Source: Verrucomicrobiota bacterium (GTDB taxonomy: Bacteria > Verrucomicrobiota > Verrucomicrobiia > Limisphaerales > JAHDYP01). From it: DNA of 16,873 nucleotides. The position numbers were made by a program, and so were the translations under genes. The notes below the pieces were generated by a model that ran no database searches, was not told the DNA's origin, and was given only the letters and a program-made list of their open reading frames with translations. The DNA is taken from positions 1 through 16,873 of the forward strand of contig JBJOII010000099.1 in assembly GCA_046047235.1 (NCBI GenBank), in the 5' to 3' direction. This document shows, piece by piece, positions 1 to 16,873 of the stretch; position 1 is the stretch's first letter, and the number at the start of each line of letters is the position of its first letter.

Positions 1-2
1 GC

Positions 3-110
3 CCATTCGCGTCTACTCCCGATCAGCAAGAGAAACAGTCCCTGCCATTCGCGTCTATTCGTGTCCATTCGCGGTCAAAAAAGAAAACCATCCGCGTCCA
101 TTCGTGTCTC
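3..110. repeat. Four dispersed direct copies of a roughly 13-bp motif CCATTCG(C/T)G(G)TCT at 3-15, 45-57, 65-76 and 98-110, immediately upstream of the oxidoreductase gene. Possible operator or iteron array. It may continue beyond the window edge.
   Basis: Seen directly: ccattcgcgtcta occurs identically at 3-15 and 45-57. The 65-76 copy (ccattcgcggtc) has one indel and the 98-110 copy (ccattcgtgtctc) has one mismatch. Spacings are 42, 20 and 33 bp. Confidence 0.5.
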
Positions 111-157
111 TATTTTCGGCTCGCACTACCCCCCCTCCCCGTGCATGGTCTCATTCC

Positions 158-265
158 ATGAATTCACCCCTTTCCAAGACTACTTCACGTCGCCGTTTTT
201 TGGCTGCCGTAGGCACGGCGATGGCGGCTCCCATGATCGTTCCCTCGTCCGTGTTGGGTCAGGGT
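158..265 (+). other. Predicted Tat signal peptide (about 36 aa: MNSPLSKTTSRRRFLAAVGTAMAAPMIVPSSVLGQG).
   Basis: The S-R-R-x-F-L twin-arginine consensus is followed by a hydrophobic h-region and an A-x-A-like/GQG cleavage region. Confidence 0.6.
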
Positions 266-1480: not shown

Positions 1481-1492
1481 ACCAGCCAGCTC

Positions 1493-2875: not shown

Positions 2876-2893
2876 GCACCCACCTGTCCACGG

Positions 2894-2958
2894 AGGTCAG
2901 CCTGTCCGCCATAGCCTTGGCGAAGGCGGAAGGGCAAAGGTCAGCCTGTCGCCCGTAG
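2894..2958. repeat. An imperfect 21-bp direct repeat, AGGTCAGCCTGTC(C/G)(G/C)CC(A/G)TAG, at 2894-2914 and 2938-2958 (about 18/21 identical) in the convergent intergenic region.
   Basis: Read directly from the sequence. The spacing is 44 bp. Confidence 0.4.
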
Positions 2959-3146
2959 TCCCCTCCACTCCAAACCTCACCAACGGCGCCATCCTCCACA
3001 GAACCACCGGCGCAGGGTGCCCGCCCTTTAAGGCACCTTGGCCCCCTTCTCTCAACTCCATCCCTTTCTCTACAGACATACATGGCACAGCCAAATCCCG
3101 ACACCACCCTCTCCTCTCTTCTCCCTCCCATCTCCCGGAACAAAAA

Positions 3147-3172
3147 ACGACCGCCGGTTTCCCGGCGGTCGT
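3147..3172 (-). terminator. Rho-independent terminator for the minus-strand LamG/Ig gene. The stem ACGACCGCCGG/CCGGCGGTCGT has a 4-nt loop and is followed on the minus strand by TTTTTTG (plus-strand A-run 3142-3147).
   Basis: A perfect 11-bp GC-rich stem with a tetraloop sits 25 nt downstream of the minus-strand stop (3197-3199). The T6 tract is on the transcribed (minus) sense strand. No T-run follows on the plus strand, so the terminator is unidirectional. Confidence 0.65.
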
Positions 3173-3196
3173 TCGCGTTAGAATGAATCTGCCGAC

Positions 3197-6187
3197 TTAC
3201 TTCCGCAAACGGAAGAAGCCCGGCGTGCTCGTGGTGTGGCTGGTTTCACCGGCAGTCGACACATCCTGCCAGGTCGCACCGCTCAGGTCAGAGGCCTGCT
3301 GTAGTACTGCAGTGCTGTCACTCCAGGTGACAGTCACGCTGCCTGCACCAGCATCATAGGTCACACCGCCAACCTCAGGCTGCGTCACCACGTCAATCAC
3401 CACGGTCGACAGGTCGTTGCCCGCCAACCCGGCAGCGTAGATCGCCGCGACCTCAGTCGGGGTCACCACACGACGCCAGATGCCCAGATCGTCTACGCTC
3501 AGGTCGGTGAACGTCGAACCATAGGATCCCGTGCCGTCCTGGCCAATGTTCGTGCTGTTCGCTCCAGGAGTCGTCACGTCACGCACACCGTCGCCAATCA
3601 GGGTCCGGTTCGCCAACACTCCGTCCACATAGGTCGAGGCCATACCGCTGCGGTCATAAGCCACCACCACATGGTGCCAGTTCGCGTTGCCGAAGGTGCC
3701 GCCAGGACCGTCGTAGTCCTTGCGACCAGCCGGAGGACCAGCGTAGTTCCACTGCACACGACCATCACCGTCACCGGCGATCACGTAGCCCTGGTTGCCA
3801 CCGCTGTTCCAGTCCTTGTTGCCAATGAACGAAGGATCACCACTCCAGCCACCCTCGGGATTCAACGCCCAGAAGCTGATCGAGAAGTCGACGTCCGATC
3901 CGAAGTCCAGATCCGAAGGCGCCCCCAAGGACACGTAGTCAGAACCGGAAGGAATGTTCACCGCACCGCCAACGGCGCCAGTCACAAAGGTCGGGCTGCC
4001 CACGGCCTGCCCGTTGTTCCCTGCACCCGACGCGTCGTTCAGGTTGTTGTCAAACTTCAGGTGCACCACCAGATCCTGCCCGATGCTGCCCGCAAACACG
4101 TCCACCTGCGTGGACTTGCTCATCACGGCCGCACCACCAGTCAACTGCGCGTTGCTCACTTCCACGGCATACGTGCCAGCATCCGAAACGCTGGCCGATG
4201 CCACGCTGTAGGTCGCCTCGGTCGCTCCCGCGATCGCCGCACCGTCCTTATACCAGGTGTAGGTGAACGGCTCAGTCCCGGTCGCAGTGACCGACAAGCT
4301 GAACGAAGAACCCGCATGCACCCACGATCCCGCCGGCTGATCACCGATCACCGGAGGCAACGCCGTGTTGATGCTATACAAGCCGACGTTGTCCACGCCG
4401 AAGTACCAGCTCGCGGTGCCGGCCTGCATGAAGCGCAGTCGAACGGCCGCTTGATTGTCGGCCTGAGGCAGGCGGAACAACTCAACGCGCTTCGACTCCA
4501 AACGATCGTCGTTGATACGACCACTGATGTAAGGCGCCAGATCCTGGGAAACCGTGGCACCAATCCACGCGCCATACGCCTCACCATGCGCCTGGTCAGC
4601 ACGCACCTCGCTCAAAGTCGCCACTGCGTCAACTTCTTCCCCGTTCATGATGATGTCCGGCGCGTCAATCATGTAGACCACCGGCAGCCAAGTCGCACCG
4701 CCATCAATGGAATACTCCACCGAGGCAATGTTGTCCTGGTTCTGCTCATACATGCTGTGATACGAGAGATACACGTTGTTCTGTCCGGAACAGTTGAAGT
4801 CCTTCGAGAACATCACCTGCACCTGATTTCCGCTGCGGACATCCGATTCGCCATAGGCAAAGTTTCCGCTCACCAGGCTCTCCAATACCACGCCGTTTTC
4901 CACGATCGGATTCAGCGCAAGACGACGGGCCGAATCCACGTTCAGGGCCGCCAAGGTGTCCGTGCTGATCACCACGAAGTCCGCATACGAATCTGAATTC
5001 GCATTGCTCAAATCCAAACCCGTGCCCGCAATGTCCGTCAGGTTGGTCACAGTCCAGCCAGCCGGAAGCGACCCCTCAGCCACCGCGTCAAAGGTCTCCA
5101 ACGCAATCGGTGAAGGCAGATTCACGTTGATGTAGTCCGCCACGGTAAACGTCCAGCTCTCCGTACGCGCACCGTCCGCACTGTCCGTCCAGTTCAGCTG
5201 AACGGAATGCTCGGTCAAAGGAGCCAGCACAGAGGCCGGGGTGTACACAATCGTGTAGGACTTCCCGTCAACGGTAATCCCCGGCGTCACCGCCGCACCG
5301 TCAAACTCCATCTGAATGCTCCCCTGCGCCACGGTGCTGCCACCCTGGTTCAAGACCACTGTCACTGCCGGAACCGGCGAGGCATTCACACCGTTCACCG
5401 CCGGATCACGCGACTCGATAAAGCTCGAGACGGTCGGGATCGAGGTCGGAATCCCGGCCGCACTCGGCCCGCCCAACGCAATCATGTCCCCCGCCGTCAG
5501 CACCTGCGCCCACAACTGAATGCTGTTCACATAACCCGGGGCAATGTCCCCGTCATTATCCGTGAACAACTCAGCATAGTAGTTCGGTGCCATGGCCCAA
5601 CGACCCTCCAGCACGTTGCCCAGGTTCTGCACACCCACCTCAGCGCCGTCGATGTACTTGCGCATGGTCCCGGTCACGCTGTCCATCGTCACCGCAATCC
5701 GGTGCCAGGTGTCAGCCACAACCTGACCGTCATACTGGCCACTAATACCAATCCCGTTCGAGGTGTTCACAAAGAACTCCGCGTCGGCATTGATCACGCT
5801 CTCATCAATATCAATGATCGAACGCCACTTGGAATCAGAAGCCGCCGGGAACAACACGTCCATGATTAGCGTCCATTGGTTCACCAATGAGCCGCCCCCG
5901 TTCGCCGCCGTCGGTGTCGGCATCCGCAAACCCGAGCCAATCTCATAACCCGTGAAGCTCAGGACCTGCGCCACCTCACCGTTGATGTCCGGAATACCAA
6001 AAGAAGTGGTGCTGCCAAAGGCAGTCCCCGCCTGCCCGCTCGCCCCGTAAGTCATGTCTCCACCTATCGTCGCCGATAGGTTGCCACTGTTGAAATCCCA
6101 CTGTCCGCTCGGCGCGGCCTGCAAGGTCATATACCCTGCACATGCCGCCACCGCCACAAACAGGCTGGGTCGGATGGTTGTTCGCAT
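3197..6187 (-). CDS. Large secreted cell-surface protein (996 aa). It has an N-terminal signal peptide, Ig-like (I-set-like) repeats and a LamG/concanavalin-A-like lectin domain. A small beta-sandwich-like tail ends ...TWQDVSTAGETSHTTSTPGFFRLRK.
   Basis: The signal peptide is MRTTIRPSLFVAVAACAGYMTLQAAP. The Ig-like signature is YTWYKDGAAIAGATEATYSVASASVSDAGTYAVEVSN. A LamG-like stretch reads NWHHVVVAYDRSGMASTYVDGVLANRTLIGDG. The composition is Thr/Ser/Gly/Val-rich, typical of adhesin-like beta-sandwich repeats. The start ATG is at 6185-6187 and the stop TAA at 3197-3199. Confidence 0.7.
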   Translation of the reverse strand: MRTTIRPSLFVAVAACAGYMTLQAAPSGQWDFNSGNLSATIGGDMTYGASGQAGTAFGSTTSFGIPDINGEVAQVLSFTGYEIGSGLRMPTPTAANGGGSLVNQWTLIMDVLFPAASDSKWRSIIDIDESVINADAEFFVNTSNGIGISGQYDGQVVADTWHRIAVTMDSVTGTMRKYIDGAEVGVQNLGNVLEGRWAMAPNYYAELFTDNDGDIAPGYVNSIQLWAQVLTAGDMIALGGPSAAGIPTSIPTVSSFIESRDPAVNGVNASPVPAVTVVLNQGGSTVAQGSIQMEFDGAAVTPGITVDGKSYTIVYTPASVLAPLTEHSVQLNWTDSADGARTESWTFTVADYINVNLPSPIALETFDAVAEGSLPAGWTVTNLTDIAGTGLDLSNANSDSYADFVVISTDTLAALNVDSARRLALNPIVENGVVLESLVSGNFAYGESDVRSGNQVQVMFSKDFNCSGQNNVYLSYHSMYEQNQDNIASVEYSIDGGATWLPVVYMIDAPDIIMNGEEVDAVATLSEVRADQAHGEAYGAWIGATVSQDLAPYISGRINDDRLESKRVELFRLPQADNQAAVRLRFMQAGTASWYFGVDNVGLYSINTALPPVIGDQPAGSWVHAGSSFSLSVTATGTEPFTYTWYKDGAAIAGATEATYSVASASVSDAGTYAVEVSNAQLTGGAAVMSKSTQVDVFAGSIGQDLVVHLKFDNNLNDASGAGNNGQAVGSPTFVTGAVGGAVNIPSGSDYVSLGAPSDLDFGSDVDFSISFWALNPEGGWSGDPSFIGNKDWNSGGNQGYVIAGDGDGRVQWNYAGPPAGRKDYDGPGGTFGNANWHHVVVAYDRSGMASTYVDGVLANRTLIGDGVRDVTTPGANSTNIGQDGTGSYGSTFTDLSVDDLGIWRRVVTPTEVAAIYAAGLAGNDLSTVVIDVVTQPEVGGVTYDAGAGSVTVTWSDSTAVLQQASDLSGATWQDVSTAGETSHTTSTPGFFRLRK

Positions 6188-6225
6188 AGTTCTCTGCTGG
6201 TTTGGTTTTGTTTGGGTTTTTGGAT

Positions 6226-6240
6226 TGTCAGTCTGACTGA
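6226..6240. promoter_or_regulatory. A 7-1-7 perfect palindrome GTCAGTC-T-GACTGAC lies about 40 bp upstream of the LamG/Ig gene start. It is preceded on the plus strand by a T-rich tract (6201-6222). Possible operator.
   Basis: Reverse-complement identity was checked by eye. The palindrome sits between the lipoprotein stop (6267) and the LamG start (6187). Confidence 0.3.
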
Positions 6241-6266
6241 CCGAAAGTCTTTGTATCCGGCCCCGG

Positions 6267-6644
6267 CTACTTGCGCGCCTGATGGGTCTTCAACATCTCC
6301 TGCGCCGCCGCATTCCCCGCCTCCGCCGCCGCTCGCAATTGCTCCGCCACAGTCCTCAACGACCCCGCCGCAATCTCCCGCTGCTCCGGCGTCAGATCCG
6401 GCCGCGCCATCATGCTCTGTAATTCAATAAACGCACGCGGCGTGTCCTGCGACTCCATCGCCGCAATCGCACTCTCCGCATTCGCCTGCGCCTCAGGTGA
6501 CGCATCCTGAAAGGCCTCCTTCACCGCCCCCGGTGCCGCCTCGGCCGACACCGCCTCCGGCGGCTTGGAATCCCCACCGCACCCCGCCAAAAATGAAGCC
6601 GCCACCACCAACACCCCGACTCTGTAACAAATGCGCCTTAACAT
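6267..6644 (-). CDS. Small Ala-rich lipoprotein of 125 aa and unknown function.
   Basis: The N-terminus MLRRICYRVGVLVVAASFLAGCGG carries a lipobox (LAGC) after a hydrophobic h-region. A strong Shine-Dalgarno AGGAGG lies 3 nt upstream of the ATG (plus-strand cctcct at 6648-6653). The stop TAG is at 6267-6269. Confidence 0.65.
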   Translation of the reverse strand: MLRRICYRVGVLVVAASFLAGCGGDSKPPEAVSAEAAPGAVKEAFQDASPEAQANAESAIAAMESQDTPRAFIELQSMMARPDLTPEQREIAAGSLRTVAEQLRAAAEAGNAAAQEMLKTHQARK

Positions 6645-6647
6645 AAT

Positions 6648-6653
6648 CCTCCT
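6648..6653 (-). promoter_or_regulatory. Shine-Dalgarno sequence AGGAGG for the lipoprotein gene.
   Basis: Plus-strand cctcct lies immediately upstream (on the minus strand) of the ATG at 6642-6644. Confidence 0.6.
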
Positions 6654-6714
6654 GATACCTCTCTGTTCTCCAATTCAAACGGATACACTCTGGGCAATCC
6701 GCCCCCCCGCCACC

Positions 6715-7533
6715 CTAGAAACTCGGCTGTTCCAAAGGCGTCTCACCTGTGTACCACCGGTAGTCCACCCCCTTGTCAAAACCCCGGAACGTAATGGTCG
6801 ATACATTCCCCGGAATCCACAACGTGTTACATCGCTTGTTGTGCCGAAACCATTCGTTAGACATGTCCAGGTTCGGATACAGCGCCGCCAAATCATACCG
6901 CCATTGCGTCAAAATCTCCCGCTGACCGGGGAATAAACCCAGACTGTCGGTCGTTCCCTCCATCCGCTGCTCCGCTGCGTCCTGCGCAAAAATCGTCGTC
7001 GAAGGACTCTGAAAAGTGCTCAGCTTCATGGGCCCCAGATCCCCGCGATACGAGGACACCACAAACCGGTTCAAGCCGTAGGAGGAATAGAGCCAGAACT
7101 CTTTCGGATAGGTCTTCCCCTCCTCCCGCCACTCGTCCACCACCCGCGCACTGGGACACCGATAGATATCCTTGGTCCCGCCAAAATAACTCACATACGC
7201 AATCCCCCAATACGCCTCACCGTCCGTAGGCTCCAGCTGCACGGTCGACCGAGGATTCCGCACCCATTGCCCGTGGTTCGGCGCGCTGGCCGCCCCGGAA
7301 CTATCCAACACGTGATGGAAGGTATCGTTGTTGTCCTCCGCATACATGGTGGTGCCCAAGCCAATCTGGTGCAGGTTGTTCAAGCACTTGGTCTGACGAG
7401 CCTTCTCCTTGGCCTTCGCCAGCGCCGGTAACAACATGCCGGCCAAGATCGCGATAATCGCAATCACGACCAAAAGCTCAATAAGGGTGAACCCCGAAAA
7501 ACGGGCGTTCTTATTGGGAATTCTCAAAACCAT
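6715..7533 (-). CDS. Prepilin-type N-terminal cleavage/methylation domain protein of the DUF1559 / H-X9-DG-like family. This family is massively expanded in Planctomycetota/Verrucomicrobiota.
   Basis: The N-terminus [14 protein letters not shown]|[28 protein letters not shown] has the class-III (type IV pilin) leader with cleavage after Gly, Phe at +1 and Glu at +5. The C-terminal motif [19 protein letters not shown] resembles the DUF1559 H-x2-N-x-LW-x-(D/P)G-xV signature. The start ATG is at 7531-7533 and the stop TAG at 6715-6717. Confidence 0.85.
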
Positions 7534-7578
7534 GGCTTTTTCTAGAAGGTATTAAACGATGCTGCCGGCGGTACGGAA

Positions 7579-7584
7579 TGTCAA
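7579..7584 (-). promoter_or_regulatory. A perfect TTGACA -35-like hexamer on the minus strand, about 46 nt upstream of the DUF1559 gene start. No convincing -10 follows at 17-18 bp spacing (CATCGT/ATCGTT).
   Basis: Plus-strand tgtcaa at 7579-7584. It lies in the only clearly AT-richer intergenic region of the window (7534-7774). Confidence 0.25.
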
Positions 7585-7774
7585 CCACCCTTGCTACAAT
7601 AGGCAGGATTTAAGCACATCAGCGCAGCAGTTAGGCGGAATAATACATAGCGTTGCAACCCTTAGAGTTAGGCTCCACATATCGCTTGCACTTCGCTTTT
7701 TCACGCATCGCTGAACACACCTATCCCCCCAGCCCGTCACCTTCAGATGACCAAAATGTGACGAATCGGTGAAC

Positions 7775-8605
7775 TCACCCCCCGCCAGCGCCGGAATACT
7801 TGGAAGCGCCCGGCATCGTTTTAAACCTCTCCAAGGCGCTCCTTCCCCAATCCTTCCGACGCTCCACGGCCCCGGGGCCTGCAACCCCGGCGGCCTGAAC
7901 CGCCTTCTGCCCCGCCACGGCAGGCTCGGCACTCACCACAGGCTTCGCAGGGACTGAGGGCACCGGCAAAACCGGAGCAGGTCTCGGCTCAAAAAATGAA
8001 CTCCTCCCGAGCCCCATACCCGATGTCGCCATCACCTCCCCCGGCTCCGTCGCCCCAACAGCCGCCACACCGATCTCACGCGCCAACTCGGCTTCCGGCT
8101 TCCAAACCAAACGCACCGACGGCACCGGCCCCACATGCACCACCAGCCGGTAATACACCTGCCCCGCCAGATCCACCCGGTCCACCATGGACTCCGCCTG
8201 TAAAATCGAAGCCAGCAACCCCTTCAGCACGGGTCGCTCGGCATTCGCCGTCACCAGCGACCGCAACGCCCGCTCCGATACATCCCGTACCCGATCCAAC
8301 TCCAACAACAACCTCGGCACCGGAGTCAGTTCCATCTGGAACTCACCCAGCTCATACCCCGCCTCCAAAATCACCGGCGCACCACCGTGGATCTCATGCA
8401 AGGCCTCCACCAACCGGTCCGGCCCCTCCGCCTTGAAGCCGGCTACACTCCCCTGCAACTCAACCTGCAGCTGGCGAAGCTGACCACTCGCCGCCGTGAC
8501 CGCCCCGCGAATCTCAGCCACCTTCGGCGGCACCAGCTGCAACGCCTCCTGAAACCGCGCCGCGCTGTCCCCCAAATGCTGCAGCTTGCGAATAAATTTC
8601 TTCAT
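7775..8605 (-). CDS. Hypothetical cytoplasmic protein of 276 aa. The N-terminal half is helical/coiled-coil-like and the C-terminal roughly 90 aa form a Pro/Ala/Val-rich low-complexity tail. It is the last gene of the flotillin-AAA cassette. The ORF-track start at 8677 would overlap the upstream gene, and the ATG at 8603-8605 (MKKFIRKL...) is preferred.
   Basis: The ATG at 8605 is preceded by GAGGAAAGG (a Shine-Dalgarno sequence overlapping the TGA of the giant gene), with only 13 nt between the genes. There is no TM segment or signal peptide. The tail reads ...FFEPRPAPVLPVPSVPAKPVVSAEPAVAGQKAVQAAGVAGPGAV... The stop is at 7775-7777. Confidence 0.6.
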   Translation of the reverse strand: MKKFIRKLQHLGDSAARFQEALQLVPPKVAEIRGAVTAASGQLRQLQVELQGSVAGFKAEGPDRLVEALHEIHGGAPVILEAGYELGEFQMELTPVPRLLLELDRVRDVSERALRSLVTANAERPVLKGLLASILQAESMVDRVDLAGQVYYRLVVHVGPVPSVRLVWKPEAELAREIGVAAVGATEPGEVMATSGMGLGRSSFFEPRPAPVLPVPSVPAKPVVSAEPAVAGQKAVQAAGVAGPGAVERRKDWGRSALERFKTMPGASKYSGAGGG

Positions 8606-8608
8606 AAC

Positions 8609-8619
8609 GATCCTTTCCT
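8609..8619 (-). promoter_or_regulatory. Shine-Dalgarno sequence (GAGGAAAGG) for the 276-aa gene, overlapping the stop codon of the giant ATPase gene. This indicates translational coupling.
   Basis: Plus-strand cctttcctc is the reverse complement of gaggaaagg, ending about 6 nt before the ATG at 8605. Confidence 0.5.
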
Positions 8620-11600
8620 CAACGCTCGGCCTGGCTGGCACCCTCCTGTTCCCCACCCTTTCCCGACTCCCCACCACGCACCGACAATGCCCGCTGGAAC
8701 TGCTCCAAAAACGCCTGCTCGTTCTCCATCATCTCCTGCGTCAACCGAATCTCCACCGTCCCGTCCCGCGCCTTCGCCAACAGCATCTCCTCCACGCTGC
8801 GCAAGTAATCCCGCTGCCTCGCCGCAATGTCCTTCAAGGTCGCCAAAGTGCTGTGAACCATCTCCATCTCATGCATCACACTCCCCATCCGGTCCGCCGT
8901 CGTCGCCGCATACACCTCCTGAATCACCCGCGTCAAATCCGCCCTCAACCCCTCCAAGCCCGCACCCACCCGATGCGCCGCCGACACCACGGCATCGGTC
9001 CCGCTTACCCCGGCACTCTCTCTCGCCCTCAACCCCTGCTCCATCACGGATCGCATCGCTTCCAACTGTCCCGCCAATGGAGCCAAATCCAGCGGAGCAG
9101 ACTCAGGCTTCGTCGCCTCACCCCGCTTCGCCAGCGCCTCACTCACCACCCCTCGCAACGCCGCCAGCCCCTGCTCCACCGGCCCCAGGTCCACCACCAC
9201 CGACGGCCCGGCATTCCGCGCCTTAAACTGCGCCTCCAAGGTCTGCCGGATCCCGTCCAACCCCGACTCAAAGGCCGACAACTGCGCCACCACCCGCCCC
9301 ACCGGATCTGAACCCTCCCCACCCTGAGACAACAGGTTCCTCCGAAACACGCGCTTGATGTCCGCCCAGCGCTCCGCCTCCGCCTCGGTCTGCACCCCCA
9401 GCAGTTCCTTGAACTTCAAAAGGTTCGCCTCCGCCCCCGTCGTCAGTGTCTGGGATTCCCCCCGATAATGCTCCACCACCAACGCCCGCACCTCCGCCTC
9501 GCTCAGGATCGGAACCACCTTTTCCGCCAGCCGGTTCATGTTCCGATACGAACCCTGCAGCTTGAACGCCGGCTCCGTCCGGTACGCATCGGCCTGCCCT
9601 GCCGAATGGATATACTCCTGGTTCACCCGCAGGATCACCTCGCGCACCGCCACCAGTTTCACCATCACCGACAAAAGTTCCTCCACCTCCTGCGCCGCAT
9701 AACTCCCCTCCAGCCCCTCCAGATCCCGCTCCCCCGTCTCTGCCATCCGGATAAACGCCCGAATGTCTTTCTGACTCTTGTTCGCCAACGGCGCCAAGGT
9801 CGCGTTCGATGTCACCGCATTCTCCAGGTAACTCCGCCGAAACGCCTCCGCACTCCCGCCCAGGATGTCGCCCAAATTGTACGTGTCCGCCCGGTTCGCC
9901 AACATGTCCGGTATCCGGAACTTCAAACCGCTCTCGGTATACGGATTGCCCGCCATCACCACCACCACCTTGCGCCCCCGCAAATCATACGTCCGCGGCC
10001 GACCACGCCAGACCCCTTCAATCTTCCGCTGTGCATCACACAACGAAATGAACTTCTGCAAAAACTCCGCATGACAATGCTGGATGTCATCCACATAGAT
10101 CATCGCATTGTCCCCCATCTCCAAGGCGAGGTTCAAACGCCGCACCTCCTCCCGCGCCGCCGCATTCGGCGCCTCCTCCGGATCCAACGATGTCACCCCA
10201 TGCCCCAAGGCCGGACCGTTGATCTTCACAAAAACAATCCCCAGCCGGTTCGCGATATACTCCATCAAGGTGGTCTTGCCATACCCCGGCGGCGATATCA
10301 CCAGCAGCAACCCCATCAAATCAGTCCGCTTCTGATCCCCCGCCGCACCCACCTGCTTCGCCAAGTTGTCGCCAATCAAAGGCAGATACACCTCGTCAAT
10401 CAGCTGGTTCCGCACAAAGGACGTCAGCACCCGCGGCTTAAACTCGCCCAACCGTAACCGCTCCCGCTCCGCATCCAGCAACTCCCGCTTCACCTCCTGA
10501 TACCGGTTGAACCTCGGCACCACCTCCGCCTCAAACCGCCCCAACCGCTTCCGAAAATCCAGATAATCAAACCGGTACACCCCGCCCGCTATCCGCCGGT
10601 GGCTCCCCTTCATCCCCTCCAGATCCACCCGCGTCCTCGCCTCCACCACTTCCCAATTCACCCCCTCCCCGCAAAACAATACCGCCGCCACTTCCTCCAA
10701 ATACCGCACTCCCTCCGCACGCCCGGACAAGAAACCCCGCACCCAGTCCCGCACCAACTCCAGCTCGCTTCCCGGATGCGACGCCACTTCCTCCCGCACC
10801 CGACGAAAATCACTCTCCGCGCCCAGCCGCACCAGGTCGGCTTCAAACGCCGTGACCTGCTCCCTCCCCTCCCGGCTCAACACAAACCCCTCGCTCGACG
10901 TCAATTGGTCAACCAGATACCCCGCCGCCGCACCACACAACCCCTCCGTATACAAACCGGTCTCCCGCACAAAATCCCCCAGCAACTTCTCCAGCCCGCG
11001 CCGATACCCCTCCTGTCTCGTGTCCCCGGGAAATAATCGGTTGCGCCGACCCAACCCCCTCAGCTTCGCACCCCATAACGCCCGCACCTCATCCGGACAA
11101 AACCGCTGCCAATACACCACCGCACACGCCCGCACCTCAGGCGCATACCGCGCCAAACCCAACGCCCGATGCGCCTCCGCCAGCACCCGTAAAATCTTCG
11201 CCCCATCCGCATCGTGCACCCCCTTCACATACCCCTCCTGATACCGCCCCCCCATATACTCCCGCACCCGCTCCAATATCACCCCCTCCTCCAATTCCCC
11301 CACAACCCCGCCACCCGCTTGCCCCAGCAACCAGGCCAGACATCCCTGCGCCAAATACTCGGCCCGATACACCTCCCCATCCTCAGATACGACCTCCTGA
11401 CCCCACGCCTCCCGCGTGCCCAAAAATGCCTCGTCCCGGATCACCTCAAAATACTGGGTCGATGTCAGATGAAAACAGGGCTCCCCCTCCCGCTGCACCA
11501 CGGTCAAATCCAACGCCTGCGTGTTGACATTAAAACGATGCCGCCCCAGCCGGATCACCGCCTGCCCCCCGACAAACAACTCCTGCCGATCCTTCAACTG

Positions 11601-14171
11601 CCGCACCGCATCCTGCTGCACCGACTTCAGCCGCCCCGCCAGATCATCCGCCTTCACGGAATCTTCCAGCGCCATCAAATGACCCATGGTGTCCCGCACC
11701 TTGCTCACCATCAGGTCCGACACCATGTAAGTGTGGATCTCCTCCACACTCTCAAAACCCGCCAACCGCGACTGGATCACTTTCAAGATCCGCTCCGCCG
11801 CCCCCATCAATGCCCCCGCCCGCCGATTCCGCTCCTCCACCAACGCCAGCTTCCGCTGCTCAAAGGCCTCATACAACTCCGCCCGCCGCCCCGCCAGCTC
11901 CACGGTGTAATCTTCAAAATCCGCAAACGCACCCTCCAACTCCTCCAACTGCACCGATATCCGGTTCAAATACTCATCACACCTCGCCGGCGTGTCGCAC
12001 AAATCCAAGTAGCTGGAGGCCGACTGCGACAGTAACTTCAACTGCGCCGCAAACTGCGCCGCACCCTCCTTCGACGCCAACTCCTTCAACCGCTGCTTCA
12101 ACGCCGCCTTGGCCTGGTTCAACGTCGCATACACCGACGTAATACCGTCCAGTATCCGCGTGGTCTCAGTCGCATCCTCAATCTTCAGGCTGTTCACCAC
12201 CTCCACCAGCATCTCCAGCCCGCCCCCCGCCTCACCAATCTCCTTCTCCAATGCCCGCCCCTCAGCCGCCTTCCCCACGACCTCCACCCCACGCAAAAAA
12301 CCGTCCGCCCTGCCCCGATGCCCGTCCAAGGCCTCAGGCAACAACAAGAACTTCACGGTCGCCTGCGCCAACTCATCAGTCTGCCCCACCACCGCCGCCT
12401 CCACTTCCCCCACCTGGCCCACATCCACATACCGCACCTCCCGCAACGCCAGCAAATCCCCGCGCAATCTCCGTAAACCCGCCAAATGCCCCACGTAATC
12501 ATCCAAACTCTTGAAACTCGTCCGCCGCACGGCCTGCATCCGCTCCTCACAATGCCCCCGCACCAACTCCATCCGCTCCCCCGCCTCCCGCTGCAACCGC
12601 CGCACTTTGTCAAACTCGTCCACCGCACGATCCGCCGCCTCCCTCACCCGGCCCAACGCCTCACCCACCCCATAACCCTCCTCGCCCCCCAGCCAGGAAT
12701 ACGCATCCAACATCGCTCCACACCGCCGAACGACATCTGTATACAACTCCGCATACGGTTCCTCCTTGCGCAACAAGGTCATCACCTCGTTCCCCTCCGC
12801 CAAACACCGCACCACCGCCTTGTTCCCCACCTGATACAAAAACGCCTCGCGCTGCCCCGCCGGCTCCTGCCCCGCCTCGTGAAACGGCGTCTGCCAAACC
12901 TGCACCAAATGATGCTTCTGCGCCTCCTGCTCCGCCCGAAACAACGCCACATGCCCGTTCGGAAATATCGAAAACCCATGACACCCCAACCGCTGCTCCA
13001 CCTTCTGCTCAATCAACCGATACGGCATCAACACGTAATCCCCACTCAGCCGATTGTAAAAAACATACAGGGAATCCTCCCCGTTCGGTGCATGCACCAC
13101 CCGCTCCACCAACAAATCCTTCTCCCGACTCTCAAATCGCTTCACCTCCCCCGTCGCCAAACAAACCCCATCCGGAAAAATCAACCCGTGATCCTCCGGC
13201 AACCGCACACACGACTGCCCAATCGAATCCACCCGCACCACCGTCCGCTGCTTGCCGTTGTAAATGAAATACCGCGCGTCCGCCTCCTTATACGGCCGCA
13301 CCCGCAACACCACCAGATGCTGCATCAACGCATACGCAATCTCCGCATCATCCACCTTCTGGTTCTTGTCCTCCACCGGCTCAGCATAAATCCCCTGCCC
13401 CGTGTCCGTGTTGTCCTCCACTTTGATGGTCAAATCCCCCTCGGTACACTCCACAAATAACCGGTCCTCAATCGATACATGCGGATGATCCCCATACCGA
13501 TACGCCTCCCGCCCCGGCGTCAACCAACGAAAATCATACTGCGGAGGAAATCCCACCCGACGATACTCCGCCTCCGCCCGACCATCCATATACCGCACCC
13601 CGCCCCCCTCAAAGGCCCACTTGAACACCGCAATGTCGTTCACCCCCGCCCCCGTCCCAAACACCATGTACAACCGACCCTCAATCACAGAGAATTTCCG
13701 CAGCCTGCTCTTCTCATACACGTTGTACAACCGCTTGAAATCCGCCTCAAAAACCGGATCCCGCAACACCTCCAGACTCTCCTCCCGAAAACTGCCCGTC
13801 TCTCCATCCCTCACGTAAACAGCAAACACATCCCCCAGATCCACCTGCCGCTTCAAACCAAAGTGCACGTTGAACCCAAATAAAAACCGCCCCTGCCCCA
13901 ACTGAACCATGTCCCGCGGAACACAGTTGTGCGACGTCACAATCCGGTCCGCCTGCAATAGCTGATACCCCACCGAACCAAAGACCTCGCGCCTCCGCTC
14001 ATCCAGCCGCGCCAACCCCAACCGCAACGCCTCCCCATGCTGCAATAACCGCTGCCGGATAATCTCATACGTCGCACTCCCCAACGCCTCCTGCGCCGAC
14101 GCCCCCACCACCGGCTGCCCCACGGCACCCGACGCCTCCTTCATCTCTCGCTCGTCTGCTGGCTCAGGCAT
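8619..14171 (-). CDS. Giant multidomain protein of 1850 aa with a central MoxR/AAA_5-type AAA+ ATPase core (about aa 1290-1440). An N-terminal region of about 1100 aa has no recognisable motifs; it is beta-rich and then helical. A helical, Ala/Glu/Arg-rich C-terminal region of about 480 aa follows the ATPase core.
   Basis: Walker A LLLVISPPGYGKTTLMEYIA (nt about 10265-10303). Walker B MIYVDDIQH (about 10081-10107). An AAA_5-specific sensor-1 block VVVVMAGNPYTESG...RIPDMLANRADTY (about 9947-9988) parallels the MoxR hhIATQNPxExxGTYxLPEAQLDRF block. A sensor-2-like LQGSYRNMNRL lies downstream. The ORF is 5.5 kb and uninterrupted. The start ATG is at 14169-14171 with an AGGA about 10 nt upstream. 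The stop TGA is at 8619-8621. Confidence 0.8.
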   Translation of the reverse strand: MPEPADEREMKEASGAVGQPVVGASAQEALGSATYEIIRQRLLQHGEALRLGLARLDERRREVFGSVGYQLLQADRIVTSHNCVPRDMVQLGQGRFLFGFNVHFGLKRQVDLGDVFAVYVRDGETGSFREESLEVLRDPVFEADFKRLYNVYEKSRLRKFSVIEGRLYMVFGTGAGVNDIAVFKWAFEGGGVRYMDGRAEAEYRRVGFPPQYDFRWLTPGREAYRYGDHPHVSIEDRLFVECTEGDLTIKVEDNTDTGQGIYAEPVEDKNQKVDDAEIAYALMQHLVVLRVRPYKEADARYFIYNGKQRTVVRVDSIGQSCVRLPEDHGLIFPDGVCLATGEVKRFESREKDLLVERVVHAPNGEDSLYVFYNRLSGDYVLMPYRLIEQKVEQRLGCHGFSIFPNGHVALFRAEQEAQKHHLVQVWQTPFHEAGQEPAGQREAFLYQVGNKAVVRCLAEGNEVMTLLRKEEPYAELYTDVVRRCGAMLDAYSWLGGEEGYGVGEALGRVREAADRAVDEFDKVRRLQREAGERMELVRGHCEERMQAVRRTSFKSLDDYVGHLAGLRRLRGDLLALREVRYVDVGQVGEVEAAVVGQTDELAQATVKFLLLPEALDGHRGRADGFLRGVEVVGKAAEGRALEKEIGEAGGGLEMLVEVVNSLKIEDATETTRILDGITSVYATLNQAKAALKQRLKELASKEGAAQFAAQLKLLSQSASSYLDLCDTPARCDEYLNRISVQLEELEGAFADFEDYTVELAGRRAELYEAFEQRKLALVEERNRRAGALMGAAERILKVIQSRLAGFESVEEIHTYMVSDLMVSKVRDTMGHLMALEDSVKADDLAGRLKSVQQDAVRQLKDRQELFVGGQAVIRLGRHRFNVNTQALDLTVVQREGEPCFHLTSTQYFEVIRDEAFLGTREAWGQEVVSEDGEVYRAEYLAQGCLAWLLGQAGGGVVGELEEGVILERVREYMGGRYQEGYVKGVHDADGAKILRVLAEAHRALGLARYAPEVRACAVVYWQRFCPDEVRALWGAKLRGLGRRNRLFPGDTRQEGYRRGLEKLLGDFVRETGLYTEGLCGAAAGYLVDQLTSSEGFVLSREGREQVTAFEADLVRLGAESDFRRVREEVASHPGSELELVRDWVRGFLSGRAEGVRYLEEVAAVLFCGEGVNWEVVEARTRVDLEGMKGSHRRIAGGVYRFDYLDFRKRLGRFEAEVVPRFNRYQEVKRELLDAERERLRLGEFKPRVLTSFVRNQLIDEVYLPLIGDNLAKQVGAAGDQKRTDLMGLLLVISPPGYGKTTLMEYIANRLGIVFVKINGPALGHGVTSLDPEEAPNAAAREEVRRLNLALEMGDNAMIYVDDIQHCHAEFLQKFISLCDAQRKIEGVWRGRPRTYDLRGRKVVVVMAGNPYTESGLKFRIPDMLANRADTYNLGDILGGSAEAFRRSYLENAVTSNATLAPLANKSQKDIRAFIRMAETGERDLEGLEGSYAAQEVEELLSVMVKLVAVREVILRVNQEYIHSAGQADAYRTEPAFKLQGSYRNMNRLAEKVVPILSEAEVRALVVEHYRGESQTLTTGAEANLLKFKELLGVQTEAEAERWADIKRVFRRNLLSQGGEGSDPVGRVVAQLSAFESGLDGIRQTLEAQFKARNAGPSVVVDLGPVEQGLAALRGVVSEALAKRGEATKPESAPLDLAPLAGQLEAMRSVMEQGLRARESAGVSGTDAVVSAAHRVGAGLEGLRADLTRVIQEVYAATTADRMGSVMHEMEMVHSTLATLKDIAARQRDYLRSVEEMLLAKARDGTVEIRLTQEMMENEQAFLEQFQRALSVRGGESGKGGEQEGASQAER
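9940..10305 (-). other. AAA_5 (MoxR/McrB/dynein-class) ATPase core within the giant protein: Walker A, Walker B, and the NP sensor-1 plus arginine block.
   Basis: The motif positions were located in the nucleotide sequence: ggtcttgcc is GKT on the minus strand at 10271-10279, the codons for IYVDDIQ lie at 10081-10101, and the codons for VVVVMAGNPYT lie at 9947-9980. Confidence 0.7.
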
Positions 14172-14221
14172 GTCTCAGTCCTGCCACACATCATTTCACC
14201 CAGCCCACCCCAACCCGCCAA

Positions 14222-16396
14222 TCAACCCTGACCCGCCTTGTCCCCGCCCAATACAGACAACGCCACCGCGTCCGCCAACCCACTCTCCTTCGCCATCACT
14301 CCAGCCGACGCCAAAAGCCGCTTCACCCCGCCGTCCTCAGTCGATACCGCCAGCCGCGCCAGCAACGCCGCCACCGTCAGGTTCTTCAAATCCTCACTCG
14401 GAATCCCAAAGTCCTTCACCCACTGGCGCAACTGCACCTTGAACCGCTCCGGATCCCCATTGAAAAACGTCCGCTTGATGTCGCCCAAAGCCTCGCTGTT
14501 CGCCAACAATCGATCCACCGACTTGCCGGAACCAACCGCCTTCACAATCTTCTCAAAGAAGTCGTTCTCCCCGCCCACAATGTCGATCTTCGCGTGCTTC
14601 AACGCCTCGCCCACCAGCTCGGAATGCGCCCTCGCCACATCCCGCTCGACGCCGATCGCCGCCAGCTCCACATCCCGCTCCTTCGCCAGCTTCAACCGGA
14701 ACTCCTCATGCTGCTGCGTCGTCGCCTGGAACAACTTCATCGACTTCGCCTTCTCCTCAATCCCCTTCGCCTCAGCCAACAGCTTCGCCTCAATACCCGA
14801 TGCCGTCGCCGTCTCCTTGTCACGAATCCCCTCCGCCTCAGCCTCAGCCTGAATCTCCGTCACCTTCGCCCGCGCCTCACCCTTCAACCGGTCCACCTGC
14901 GCCTCAGCCGACCCCATCTCCAATACCGCACCCGCATCCACCTTCCGCGCATCCGCCTTGGCCTTGATCACCTTGGCCTCCGCCAACCCCTTCGCCGCCT
15001 CCCGCGCCGCCTCCCCGTCCGCCTCCTGCTCCATCGCATGCCGACGCTTCTCGGACGCCTTCGCCTCCGCATCCGCCAAAATCTGCACCCGCTCCGATTC
15101 CCGCGTCGCCGCCTCCCGCGCCGCATCCGCCTCAGTCACGGTCTTGATCCGCTGCCCCTCAGCCAGATTGCGCTCCACTTCCTTCTGCGCCTCAGCCGCC
15201 ACCACCTTCTCCACCTGATCCTTCTTCGCGTTCATGTCGGCCTCAATCAGCGTGACCTCACGCACCCGATTGGCCGTCATCTGCGCCTCAATGTTCAGCT
15301 TCTCCTCCTCCTGCTGCACCACCGCCTTCTGCTCCGCCACCACCACCGCACGCTTCCGCTCCACCTCCACAGCCGCCTCAGCCACCTTCACCTGCTTGTC
15401 CATGTCCGCCAACGAGACCACCCGCTCCCGACGCACCCGCGCCTCCTCACCCTCCTGCGCCGCCTCTTCCTCCAGCCGACGCTGCTCCTTCGTCACGGTA
15501 TACTGCCGCTCCTGCACCGCCCGCTTCATGTCCTCCGACCGCAAACTAATCGCCTCATCCGTCTCCAATCGCTTCGTCTCCACCTCCTGCCGACGCGCCT
15601 CAATCACCTTCCGCGACTCCGCCTCCTCAGTCGCCTGCACCTCGGTAATCGCCCGGGTCTGCTTGGCCGAATCCTCCTCATTGCGCCGCTTCTGCTCCCG
15701 CTTCGCAATGTCCGCATCCGCATTCTCCTTCTCAATCTGAACCCCCGCCCGCTTCGCATGCTCGTTCGCCACCACCCGCTCCCGCTGCGTAATCTCGGTA
15801 ATCTTCTTAATACCCTCCGAATCCAACACGTTGTCCGGATCATGCTGGTTCAACGGCGTCTGCTCCAAATAGTCGATCGCCACGTCCTGCAACAAAAACC
15901 CATCCAGATCCTTGCCAATCGTCTCCTGAATCCGGTCCCGGAACTTGATCCGCTCGGTAAACAACTCGTGAAACTCCATCTGCTTACCCGCAGTCTTCAA
16001 GGCCTCGGAAAACTTCGCCTCAAATAACTCCCGCAATTGCCCCTCGTCCGATACCCGCTCCGGCGTCAGCATCTGCGCCACCTTCCGCACGCTCTCCTCA
16101 GTCGCCTCCACCCGAATGTAAAATGCCACGGTAATGTCCGCCCGAATGTTGTCCTTGCACACCAACCCGTCCTTCCCCTTGCGCGCAATCTCCAGCTTCT
16201 TCACAGAAATATCGACAATGTGATACGTCTGCAAAAACGGCACCCGTACCATCCAGTCAAACGCCACCTTCAACCCGCCCCACCCCGTCTTCACCCCCGC
16301 CCGGCCAGGCTGAATCTTGCGAATGCACATCGCAAAAAACGATCCCACCACCACCAGCACCACCAAAACCGCCAGAACAATCAACAAGGTCTTCAT
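14222..16396 (-). CDS. Flotillin-like SPFH/band-7 membrane protein (YqiK/FloT-type) of 724 aa with an unusually long E/A/K/R-rich coiled-coil region. The ORF-track start at 16408 is a TTG, and the ATG at 16394-16396 (MKTLLIV...) is preferred.
   Basis: An N-terminal TM helix MKTLLIVLAVLVVLVVVGSFFAM is present. The SPFH core reads PGRAGVKTGWGGLKVAFDWMVRVPFLQTYHIVDISVKKLEIARKGKDGLVCKDNIRADITVAFYIRV. About 400 aa of EA-rich coiled coil follow (AEAKASEKRR..., QAEAEAEGIRDKE...). A flotillin-like C-terminal globular region is also present. The stop TGA is at 14222-14224. Confidence 0.85.
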   Translation of the reverse strand: MKTLLIVLAVLVVLVVVGSFFAMCIRKIQPGRAGVKTGWGGLKVAFDWMVRVPFLQTYHIVDISVKKLEIARKGKDGLVCKDNIRADITVAFYIRVEATEESVRKVAQMLTPERVSDEGQLRELFEAKFSEALKTAGKQMEFHELFTERIKFRDRIQETIGKDLDGFLLQDVAIDYLEQTPLNQHDPDNVLDSEGIKKITEITQRERVVANEHAKRAGVQIEKENADADIAKREQKRRNEEDSAKQTRAITEVQATEEAESRKVIEARRQEVETKRLETDEAISLRSEDMKRAVQERQYTVTKEQRRLEEEAAQEGEEARVRRERVVSLADMDKQVKVAEAAVEVERKRAVVVAEQKAVVQQEEEKLNIEAQMTANRVREVTLIEADMNAKKDQVEKVVAAEAQKEVERNLAEGQRIKTVTEADAAREAATRESERVQILADAEAKASEKRRHAMEQEADGEAAREAAKGLAEAKVIKAKADARKVDAGAVLEMGSAEAQVDRLKGEARAKVTEIQAEAEAEGIRDKETATASGIEAKLLAEAKGIEEKAKSMKLFQATTQQHEEFRLKLAKERDVELAAIGVERDVARAHSELVGEALKHAKIDIVGGENDFFEKIVKAVGSGKSVDRLLANSEALGDIKRTFFNGDPERFKVQLRQWVKDFGIPSEDLKNLTVAALLARLAVSTEDGGVKRLLASAGVMAKESGLADAVALSVLGGDKAGQG

Positions 16397-16408
16397 GATC
16401 GAATCCAA

Positions 16409-16760
16409 ACGCGCTCAGGTTTCTATCCCCTCCCCAAACACCAGCCACCCCCGCCCATCCAACAACACAACACACCCCCCGCAAACACCTCTCCTATCTA
16501 GGGAATGCCAGTGAATTACCAAAGTTCAACACCCCCCGCCACTATAATTCCCCCACCATATTCCACCCTCCCACCCAGATAACGAGCCGCACACCCCCCA
16601 AAACCAACCTCCCATATCCCACCTCCCATATCCGATCTCCCATCTCCCACCTTCGATCCCCCATCTCCACTCTCGCGCAAAGCGCCCATCCCCTAGCTCC
16701 TGACTGCCAGCTCCCAACTCCTGCGCATAGCGCTATCTCACCCTCTCCTCTCTCCTCTCT
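16409..16760. repeat. An approximately 350-bp polypyrimidine (C/T-rich, G-poor) tract on the plus strand immediately upstream of the flotillin gene. This makes a G/A-rich leader on the minus strand. It includes C4-C6 runs at 16427-16480 and a CT microsatellite-like stretch at 16740-16762.
   Basis: Direct reading shows very few G between 16420 and 16680. C-tracts are ccccTcccc (16427-16435), ccccc (16448-16452), ccc (16454-16456) and cccccc (16475-16480). The stretch ctctcctctctcctctctcc runs from 16740 to 16762. Confidence 0.6.
16609..16664. repeat. Degenerate 14-bp tandem direct repeats with no spacers. Three clear units (CTCCCATATCCCAC / CTCCCATATCCGAT / CTCCCATCTCCCAC) are followed by a decayed fourth (CTTCGATCCCCCAT).
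   Basis: Units at 16609-16622, 16623-16636 and 16637-16650, with a decayed copy at 16651-16664. The units are contiguous. Confidence 0.5.
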
Positions 16761-16762
16761 CC

Positions 16763-16788
16763 CTGCGTTCCGCAACCGCGGAACGCAG
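16763..16788. promoter_or_regulatory. A perfect inverted repeat CTGCGTTCCGC-AACC-GCGGAACGCAG (11-bp stem, 4-nt loop). No T-run follows on either strand, so this is a candidate operator or protein-binding palindrome rather than an intrinsic terminator.
   Basis: Reverse-complement identity of the two arms was verified base by base. Flanking sequence is ctctcc... on one side and aagccctcagccctcagc on the other. Confidence 0.45.
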
Positions 16789-16873
16789 AAGCCCTCAGCC
16801 CTCAGCGCTCTGCGCTTCCCGCTTACCGCTCAGCACCCCCCCCCATCGAAATCGAAATCGGGATCGCTATCGG

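Follow-up and report, generated by a model that had tools for sequence, protein, structure and literature searches.

What bacterial flotillins do is still a matter of debate, and NfeD/YqiJ proteins are, to our knowledge, their sole established partners. Neither the SPFH operon survey of Hinderhofer et al. (2009), in which the YqiK subfamily is termed SPFH2, nor a 2026 survey of SPFH proteins in Pseudomonas mentions an ATPase. An operon coding for a flotillin, YqiJ and a beta-propeller/coiled-coil/AAA+ protein, linked to the phage-shock-protein (PSP) response, was reported from in silico analysis by Ravi et al. (2024; mSystems, PMC11237479), with the Dokdonia donghaensis IS97_2772 neighbourhood as an exemplar. 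According to these authors, such operons are often extended by CesT-PspA and some of them by a phospholipase D (PLD) hydrolase, 'related abbreviated operons' (flotillin and YqiJ, sometimes with the ATPase) are more widespread, and the encoded proteins would form a sub-membrane macromolecular assembly for ESCRT-like, ATP-dependent remodelling. The present analysis concerns a cassette of three genes from a Verrucomicrobiota bacterium (Limisphaerales, JAHDYP01; assembly GCA_046047235.1, contig JBJOII010000099.1, positions 1 to 16,873, this whole stretch of 16,873 nucleotides (nt) being referred to as the window), whose minus strand carries three co-oriented and tightly packed open reading frames (ORFs) for a flotillin of 724 amino acids (aa), a giant ATPase of 1850 aa and a small protein of 276 aa. 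An earlier note, made from the letters of the window, had presented this cassette as a candidate new system, which was not borne out, the system being the one reported in PMC11237479. The flotillin and the giant ATPase very likely constitute a dedicated flotillin-AAA+ partner module of the class defined there, and there is a reasonable probability that the cassette is a Verrucomicrobial variant of a flotillin-centred module for membrane dynamics and envelope stress, linked by comparative genomics to PspA/ESCRT-III.

The adjacency of the flotillin and giant genes goes far beyond chance, and the pair is a functionally linked unit. A scan of one genome per species returned more than 585 loci, of which the best 80 were analysed; these, some of them from cultured strains, belong to Verrucomicrobiota, Planctomycetota, Bacteroidota, Hydrogenedentota and Victivallales. 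Another 80 loci, giving a total of 160, came from metagenomes scanned with a diverse profile, and the giant proteins encoded there share 38-63% identity with that of the window. Linkage was counted by hidden Markov model (HMM) searches of all ORFs, in the loci with at least 2.5 kb of upstream flank: the giant gene is directly preceded, on the same strand, by a flotillin gene in 63/63 genome and 57/58 metagenome loci, thus in 120 of 121, with linked giant proteins down to 38% identity and from at least four phyla. Since the pair is kept in this way across phyla, the adjacency is not incidental, and the gene-neighbourhood check that the earlier note had proposed, namely how often an SPFH gene accompanies homologues of the giant protein, points to a linked cassette. 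The gap between the two genes, extrapolated for 135 related loci, has a median of about 153 nt and is at most 300 nt in 105 of them. Cultured carriers are Rhodopirellula baltica, Hymenobacter spp., Haloferula sargassicola and Cesiribacter andamanensis.

Other genes are found between the two partners in some loci. A 2.36-Mb metagenomic contig (L003) carries an IS200-type Y1 transposase (PF01797) and two small ORFs at 8722-9993, so the pair can be separated without being lost. The intergenic inserts of Bacteroidota comprise a DUF3784 membrane protein (L074, 9212-9970), a DUF559 endonuclease-like protein (L077, 9479-9991) and small unassigned ORFs (L064, 9289-9937). Besides, copies 61-67% identical to the window protein occur in metagenome-assembled genomes labelled Bifidobacteriaceae, Klebsiella, Kapaibacterium or Methylomirabilota (L004, L010, L058, L061, L007 and L018), and these contigs are probably mis-binned.

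Clustering of the neighbouring genes brought out a gene of 220-270 aa immediately upstream of the flotillin gene, often overlapping it, in 33/61 genome and 50/52 metagenome loci with adequate flank (83 loci), all outside the clade of the window. Its product, which combines transmembrane segments with an acidic loop and a C-terminal beta domain, is YqiJ-like according to both Pfam (YqiJ_N, 6e-7) and full-length hhalign comparison with E. coli YqiJ (probability 95.5%, E 1.6e-8). Given this frequency and this homology, most operons of this kind consist of yqiJ-like, yqiK-like and giant ATPase genes, and the ancestral and majority form pairs the flotillin with a YqiJ/NfeD-like protein. What had been read as an alternative to the classical NfeD-flotillin pairing is thus rather an extension of the canonical yqiJ-yqiK operon. 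Further upstream, Bacteroidota-type loci code for CesT_Tir_1 (4e-54), PspA_IM30 (4.5e-41) and a divergent HTH_3+Peptidase_S24 (XRE-S24) regulator; of the 160 loci, 25 code for PspA, 22 for CesT, about 24 for this regulator and 16 for a PLD-like protein (PLDc_2, 2e-31). The absence of NfeD from the window, already pointed out in the earlier note, is confirmed: no NfeD/YqiJ gene was detected in the window with the HMM built on the upstream cluster, nor in the +/-10 kb surroundings of loci from the same clade. The possibility that such a gene lies directly upstream, beyond the window edge, finds no counterpart in the clade, and in L003 and L028 divergent unrelated genes occupy that position.

The arrangement of the three genes, with gaps of 50 and 13 nt (Table 1), agrees with what had first been read from the sequence, and the gene callers predict the same three genes in both public copies of the contig. 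The first gap extends from the flotillin stop codon TGA (14222-14224) to the ATG of the giant gene (14171), and the second from the giant-gene stop codon TGA (8619-8621), overlapped by the Shine-Dalgarno-like TGAGGA, to the ATG of the small gene (8605). No terminator-like site was seen in either gap. The 477 nt located 5' of the flotillin gene (16397-16873) are non-coding and repeat-rich: tandem repeats of 7/14 nt, G-rich on the gene strand, span 16592-16668 (CACCTCCCATATCC on the + strand, about 4.4 copies), and shorter heptad repeats are found at 16743-16762 and 16790-16834. A promoter or regulatory role of these repeats is possible. Between 7500 and 16500, the sequence has an extreme GC skew (-0.3 to -0.5 on the + strand), the coding minus strand being very G-rich, which accounts for the many long shadow ORFs of the + strand (e.g. 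14594-16027, 477 aa) that are not genes. An Rfam search of the window returned no RNA family.

Table 1. Features of the window, with positions, strand and basis of each assignment (residue numbers refer to the encoded protein)
Feature	Position	Strand	Basis or remark
YqiK-type flotillin gene (SPFH family), 724 aa from ATG	14222..16396	(-)	BLASTP and hhalign against E. coli YqiK
Flotillin, N-terminal transmembrane helix, ~residues 4-24, LLIVLAVLVVLVVVGSFFAMC	16325..16387	(-)	hydrophobic stretch in translation
Flotillin, SPFH/Band-7 domain, ~residues 30-184	15845..16309	(-)	alignment with YqiK 39-192
Flotillin, conserved C-terminal domain, ~residues 560-724 (HEEF...IDIVGGE..FF.KIV...GK.VDR)	14225..14719	(-)	29-member alignment
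Flotillin/giant-gene intergenic junction, 50 nt	14172..14221	(-)	direct sequence reading
Giant DUF3686-family AAA+ ATPase gene, 1850 aa	8619..14171	(-)	Pfam
Giant protein, DUF3686 region, residues 52-491, predicted beta-rich, propeller-like	12699..14018	(-)	Pfam PF12458
Giant protein, helical-bundle/coiled-coil region, residues 444-866	11574..12842	(-)	
Giant protein, DUF7902, residues 613-697	12081-12335	(-)	inside helical-bundle region
Giant protein, single AAA+ module, residues 1287-1545	9537..10313	(-)	motifs and Pfam
Giant-gene/small-gene junction, 13 nt	8606..8618	(-)	direct sequence reading
Lineage-specific accessory protein gene, 276 aa from ATG	7775..8605	(-)	37 homologues, no family assignment
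Small protein, C-terminal motif DWGRSALERFKTMPGASKY, residues 252-270 (DW..SALERFKxMP..SKY)	7796..7852	(-)	alignment of 31 sequences
Prepilin-type N-methylation/DUF1559 protein gene	6715-7533	(-)	downstream of the three-gene set
125-aa protein, lipoprotein-like N-terminus	6267-6644	(-)	no family match
996-aa secreted protein with Laminin_G_3 and Ig domains	3197-6187	(-)	
RtcB RNA ligase gene	1493-2875	(+)	
Gfo/Idh/MocA oxidoreductase gene	104-1480	(+)	

The 724-aa protein is, as judged from its sequence, a YqiK-type flotillin of a divergent subfamily overlooked by the Pfam Band_7 model. The flotillin call of the earlier note was right, and the identification arises from direct comparison with E. 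coli YqiK, since Pfam and NCBIfam gave nothing: BLASTP aligns the two proteins over flotillin residues 4-427 (5e-38, 30% identity), and hhalign of a 29-member family profile against YqiK reaches a probability of 100% (E 5e-42), with a match that stops near column 430. The Band_7 (PF01145) and flotillin C-terminal profile matches that had been expected are both missing, even at E<=10, the latter model (Flot, PF15975) recognising E. coli YqiK at 6.4e-41. As Band_7 recognises only 1/29 family members (7e-13), the subfamily is one that this model misses. Labels given by NCBI and JGI to the homologues are 'flotillin family protein' or YqiK, and sequence and profile searches against the PDB yielded only a coiled-coil match to QmcA (E 1e-4). 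The transmembrane helix, predicted at residues 2-24 by AlphaFold2 (AF2) with a predicted local distance difference test (pLDDT) score >80, aligns with the N-terminal hydrophobic segment of YqiK, and the SPFH domain aligns one to one with YqiK residues 39-192, where Pfam Band_7 has its match (2.1e-18). Beyond it, predicted helices at 193-314, 319-466 and 472-601 would form a long Glu/Ala/Lys-rich coiled coil, so that the succession typical of the flotillin subfamily, an N-terminal membrane anchor and then a long coiled coil, is found in this protein. A Foldseek search with this low-confidence model ranked stomatin, HflK/C, prohibitin and erlin first, at non-significant values (E>=0.09). Finally, the C-terminal domain does not align with E. 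coli YqiK, and its residues that are invariant in the 29 members, which come from three phyla, include H563, E564, E565, F566, I604, I606, G608, G609, D628 and S634; it is a candidate docking region.

The giant protein belongs to a large family, with more than 2751 homologues; the N-terminal 700 aa fall into 844 clusters at 50% identity, and full-length members measure 1600-1930 aa. Pfam assigns DUF3686 (PF12458, 1.9e-159) and DUF7902 (5.1e-26). An AF2 model of residues 1-1200 (pLDDT 71.9) predicts an N-terminal helix, a beta-rich region at 85-410 with about 25 strands (pLDDT mostly 60-85), long helices at 444-866, a small beta unit at 872-910 and a helical domain at 936-1170. A propeller-like fold of the DUF3686 region is tentatively proposed from this model, as Foldseek retrieves the beta-propellers of Sec12 (probability 1.0, E 3e-4), Kelch, the clathrin terminal domain and IFT-A, and it accords with the 'beta-propeller repeats' of Ravi et al. 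A membrane-coat ('protocoatomer') reading of the IFT-A match was tried and set aside: the template modelling (TM) score is about 0.07, the helices are bundle-like and not a solenoid, and the family is not specific to the PVC phyla.

In its C-terminal half, the giant protein shows the motifs of a bona fide AAA+ domain: Walker A SPPGYGKTT (1293-1301), Walker B VDD (D1361 and D1362), N1409 in GNPYTE, which would be sensor-1, R1427 in PDMLANR, a candidate arginine finger, and R1543 in QGSYR, a candidate sensor-2. In 28 members of the family sharing 26-42% identity, SPPGYGKTT, VDDIQH, GNPYT, PDML.NR and QGSYR are invariant. Searches with Pfam and NCBIfam revealed neither a peptidase family nor a transmembrane segment in this protein.

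The small protein consists of a conserved N-terminal domain of about 170 aa, a hypervariable Pro/Ala-rich linker and a conserved C-terminal motif, in which W253, L258, R260, F261, K262, M264, P265, S268 and K269 are invariant or nearly so in 31 sequences, and which might act as a docking peptide. Only 37 homologues were found, all without family assignment and confined to one Verrucomicrobial subclade, and searches of Pfam, NCBIfam, PADLOC, PHROGs and the PDB gave no match. Among the loci in which both flanks are available, 30 have YqiJ only, 21 the small protein only, 2 neither and none both; in the 21 loci with the small protein, its gene lies on the same strand in 17 and on the opposite strand, convergent with the giant gene, in 4. 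The small protein is therefore a lineage-specific accessory whose distribution is strictly complementary to that of YqiJ, and not a core member: the earlier claim of a three-gene system that includes it does not hold, given its restriction to one subclade and its opposite orientation in several loci. Two other identities were discarded, namely a relocated YqiJ/NfeD, ruled out by hhalign (probability 0.2%), and a divergent PspA, for which a weak PspA_IM30 match (E 0.26) was not confirmed (hhalign probability 0.6%). In a second Verrucomicrobial subclade (L028, 15539-19085; also L030-L032, L036, L037 and L090), the small gene is convergent with the giant one and precedes a PLD-like gene (PLDc_2, 2e-31) and a gene for a 621-aa protein without family match, and the C-terminal motif of this small protein is unlike that of the window (…DDKWTSFPDISFPGSK).

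A working model can be drawn from these elements. The flotillin, held by a single N-terminal transmembrane helix, would build a ring- or cage-shaped oligomer beneath the membrane, like the SPFH proteins of solved structure, and the giant protein would form a ring of its own, probably hexameric, by means of its AAA+ domain. With its propeller and its helical arms, the giant protein would dock on the flotillin scaffold, possibly on the C-terminal domain of the flotillin, and ATP hydrolysis would assemble, disassemble or remodel the scaffold or the clients gathered there, including PspA polymers where these are present. The third subunit would be a YqiJ/NfeD-like protein with three transmembrane segments in most lineages; in the clade of the window, the simplest reading is that the soluble 276-aa protein, as an adaptor or regulator, takes over this position. 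This specific remodelling mechanism is put forward tentatively, its chances being somewhat below even. A bolder version, in which the giant protein is a dedicated ATP-driven machine that assembles or disassembles flotillin cages and, in loci that have them, PspA/ESCRT-III polymers, as a bacterial counterpart of Vps4 or NSF working on an SPFH scaffold, and in which an unrelated soluble protein, docking through its C-terminal DW..ALERFKxMP..SKY peptide, displaces the membrane-embedded NfeD/YqiJ, the universal SPFH partner, non-orthologously in Limisphaerales/Pedosphaera-type Verrucomicrobia, has to be regarded as speculative and rather unlikely.

Several points weigh against the proposed module and its mechanism. 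One locus of the 121 (L131, 1-9657) has no flotillin gene in the 4 kb available upstream, where a 709-aa ORF is unrelated to flotillin (hhalign probability 0.07%). The AF2 model of the flotillin, built on a shallow, 75%-identical alignment, is poor (pLDDT 56), and the TM-scores behind the propeller assignment are low (<=0.23). All 28 diverse members of the giant family have a Walker B of the form hhhhDD (10086-10091 in the window; VDDIQH) and not DE, so that hydrolysis kinetics may be unusual, possibly slow or regulated. In addition, 4-6 related loci carry the small gene on the other strand, meaning that its translational coupling to the giant gene is local and not conserved. No PspA, CesT, YqiJ or PLD gene was found in the window or in the 25-kb loci of its clade, and the link of the window organism to the PSP response consequently rests on the homology of the two core genes. 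Finally, the physical interaction, the oligomeric state, the ATPase activity and the substrate ascribed to these proteins are predictions.

Other explanations of the cassette have to be considered. That an ordinary flotillin gene is merely followed by unrelated genes could draw on the inserts mentioned above (DUF3784 and DUF559 in Bacteroidota, the IS200-type transposase in L003), conserved terminators or promoters giving no evidence either way; the same order and strand in 120/121 loci across phyla refute it, and its probability is negligible. The earlier note had also envisaged a defence machine, and an anti-phage or abortive-infection system can be imagined in which the flotillin is a membrane platform for sensing or effect and the giant protein a STAND-, AAA- or McrB-like sensor triggering membrane damage, with a PLD effector in some loci. 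The combination of a giant multi-domain NTPase with a propeller or repeat sensor is indeed typical of conflict systems, the PLD-like gene and the XRE-S24 regulator recur in 16 and about 24 loci, respectively, and phage-like genes lie within 5 kb in L003. Against this, PADLOC (PADLOC-DB v2), run on the three proteins of the cassette and the two encoded downstream, recognised no system and gave only a P-loop-level match of the giant protein to mad8 (E 0.002), and PHROGs matches are generic. Across Verrucomicrobial contigs, moreover, the flotillin is 74-87% and the giant protein 61-69% identical, which reflects strong purifying rather than diversifying selection; the flanks vary between loci and hold housekeeping and envelope genes instead of defence islands, and PspA and CesT as conserved partners point to envelope homeostasis. 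A role in defence is thus improbable.

The nature of the AAA+ core bears on the two remaining explanations. The earlier note had described a MoxR/AAA_5 core: a single AAA+ core is indeed present, and the MoxR label is unsupported. A MoxR-class chaperone that lost its VWA partner and uses the flotillin instead would be in line with the AAA_5 profile, which is covered almost end to end (3-125 of 139) at a borderline 22.7 bits for a cutoff of 22 and is matched by 28/28 diverse members (best E 1.2e-8), and with the GNPYTE...PDMLANR and GSYR motifs, which we take to resemble the MoxR/chelatase pattern. However, the P-loop region of the window protein matches AAA and AAA_22 no less well (26.7 bits each; about 1e-4 to 1e-5), as do the 28 members (best E 6e-9 and 7e-8), and hhalign of the AAA+ region against E. 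coli proteins, from a shallow alignment (Neff 1.4), places RavA (2e-3, probability 12%) behind RuvB (1e-8), FtsH (1e-6) and McrB (5e-5), so that these profiles single out no AAA+ clade. The lack of an adjacent VWA/MIDAS partner, noticed earlier, extends to all window proteins and to the annotated conserved neighbour clusters, and its length of 1850 aa exceeds that of MoxR proteins about fivefold. This explanation is accordingly judged unlikely. Still far less credible is a DNA-repair ATPase that merely shares an operon with a flotillin. It has in its favour the Pfam title of PF12458 ('ATPase involved in DNA repair') and the NCBI product name ('DNA repair ATPase'), weak matches to RuvB_N (25/28 members) and to a clamp loader (phrog_168, 7e-5), and the LexA-like S24 regulator of Bacteroidota loci. 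Nevertheless, the resemblance to RuvB, FtsH and p97 does not extend beyond the surroundings of Walker A: with FtsH, no more than 35 columns around this motif are matched, and the structure matches of the giant protein reach only the corresponding part of p97, Rix7 and RuvB. No nuclease, helicase or DNA-binding domain was detected in it by Pfam or NCBIfam, the conserved neighbours are all membrane or membrane-stress proteins, and literature searches on DUF3686, PF12458, 'DNA repair ATPase' with flotillin, and SPFH with MoxR found nothing relevant, with no paper of the library searched tying DUF3686 to repair. Since DNA-related domains are lacking, the conserved neighbours are membrane-associated and the papers of that library make no use of the family name, the name 'DNA repair ATPase' appears unfounded.

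The flotillin-AAA+ module is of interest in several respects. An AAA+ partner of 1600-1900 aa in 120/121 loci is the strongest genomic lead to an energy-consuming activity on an SPFH scaffold, and, as it is often built into PspA operons, flotillins become tied to membrane repair of the ESCRT-III type. To this, the window adds the strict complementarity between the YqiJ gene and a previously unannotated small protein. Two annotation problems are exposed as well, the unsupported 'DNA repair ATPase' label and a Band_7 model blind to a flotillin subfamily. Noted in silico only and present in cultured carriers, the system is open to experiment.

Around the cassette, the DUF1559 gene recurs in only 5 related loci and is for this reason placed outside the system. 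The remaining flanking genes are listed in Table 1; a minus-strand ORF at 185-1729 (514 aa), which matches no family, is probably a shadow ORF.

Compared with known machines, the giant family recalls Vps4 and ESCRT-III/PspA in that a membrane-remodelling polymer (PspA, in 25 related loci) is genomically coupled to a dedicated AAA+ ATPase; it differs by the absence, according to Pfam, of a MIT domain and of a Vps4-type AAA signature, its invariant partner is the flotillin and not PspA, and the window has no PspA. With HflK/C-FtsH, the cassette shares the combination of an SPFH-family scaffold and an AAA+ machine, as a functional analogy only, whereas the giant protein has no detectable protease domain or transmembrane segment and its similarity to FtsH is limited to Walker A. 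HflK/C are, besides, periplasm-facing prohibitin-type SPFH proteins and not flotillins.

The relationship with E. coli yqiJ-yqiK and B. subtilis yuaF-floT is closer, as the flotillin of the window is a clear YqiK homologue and a YqiJ homologue precedes it in most loci. However, yqiK is the last gene of the E. coli operon, which lacks a giant ATPase, the flotillin of the window is 170 aa longer than YqiK, with a distinct conserved C-terminal domain, and the clade of the window has no YqiJ at the locus. Closest is the operon of Ravi et al.: the window lacks CesT, PspA and YqiJ, as judged with neighbour-built HMMs, and the paper mentions neither a YqiJ-less form nor the 276-aa protein, but Bacteroidota and metagenome loci reproduce the full published set, including the cHTH+protease regulator and, in some, PLD. 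The supplementary row of Dokdonia donghaensis equals the Bacteroidota loci gene for gene, and the Dokdonia ATPase presumably belongs to the DUF3686 family, judging from identical architecture and context rather than from direct sequence comparison. The window itself keeps the core of flotillin and propeller/AAA+ protein, with moderate support for the propeller fold. Taken together, the cassette is a known module and not a new system, and what is novel here is a YqiJ-less, PspA-less variant that comes with an unannotated accessory protein.

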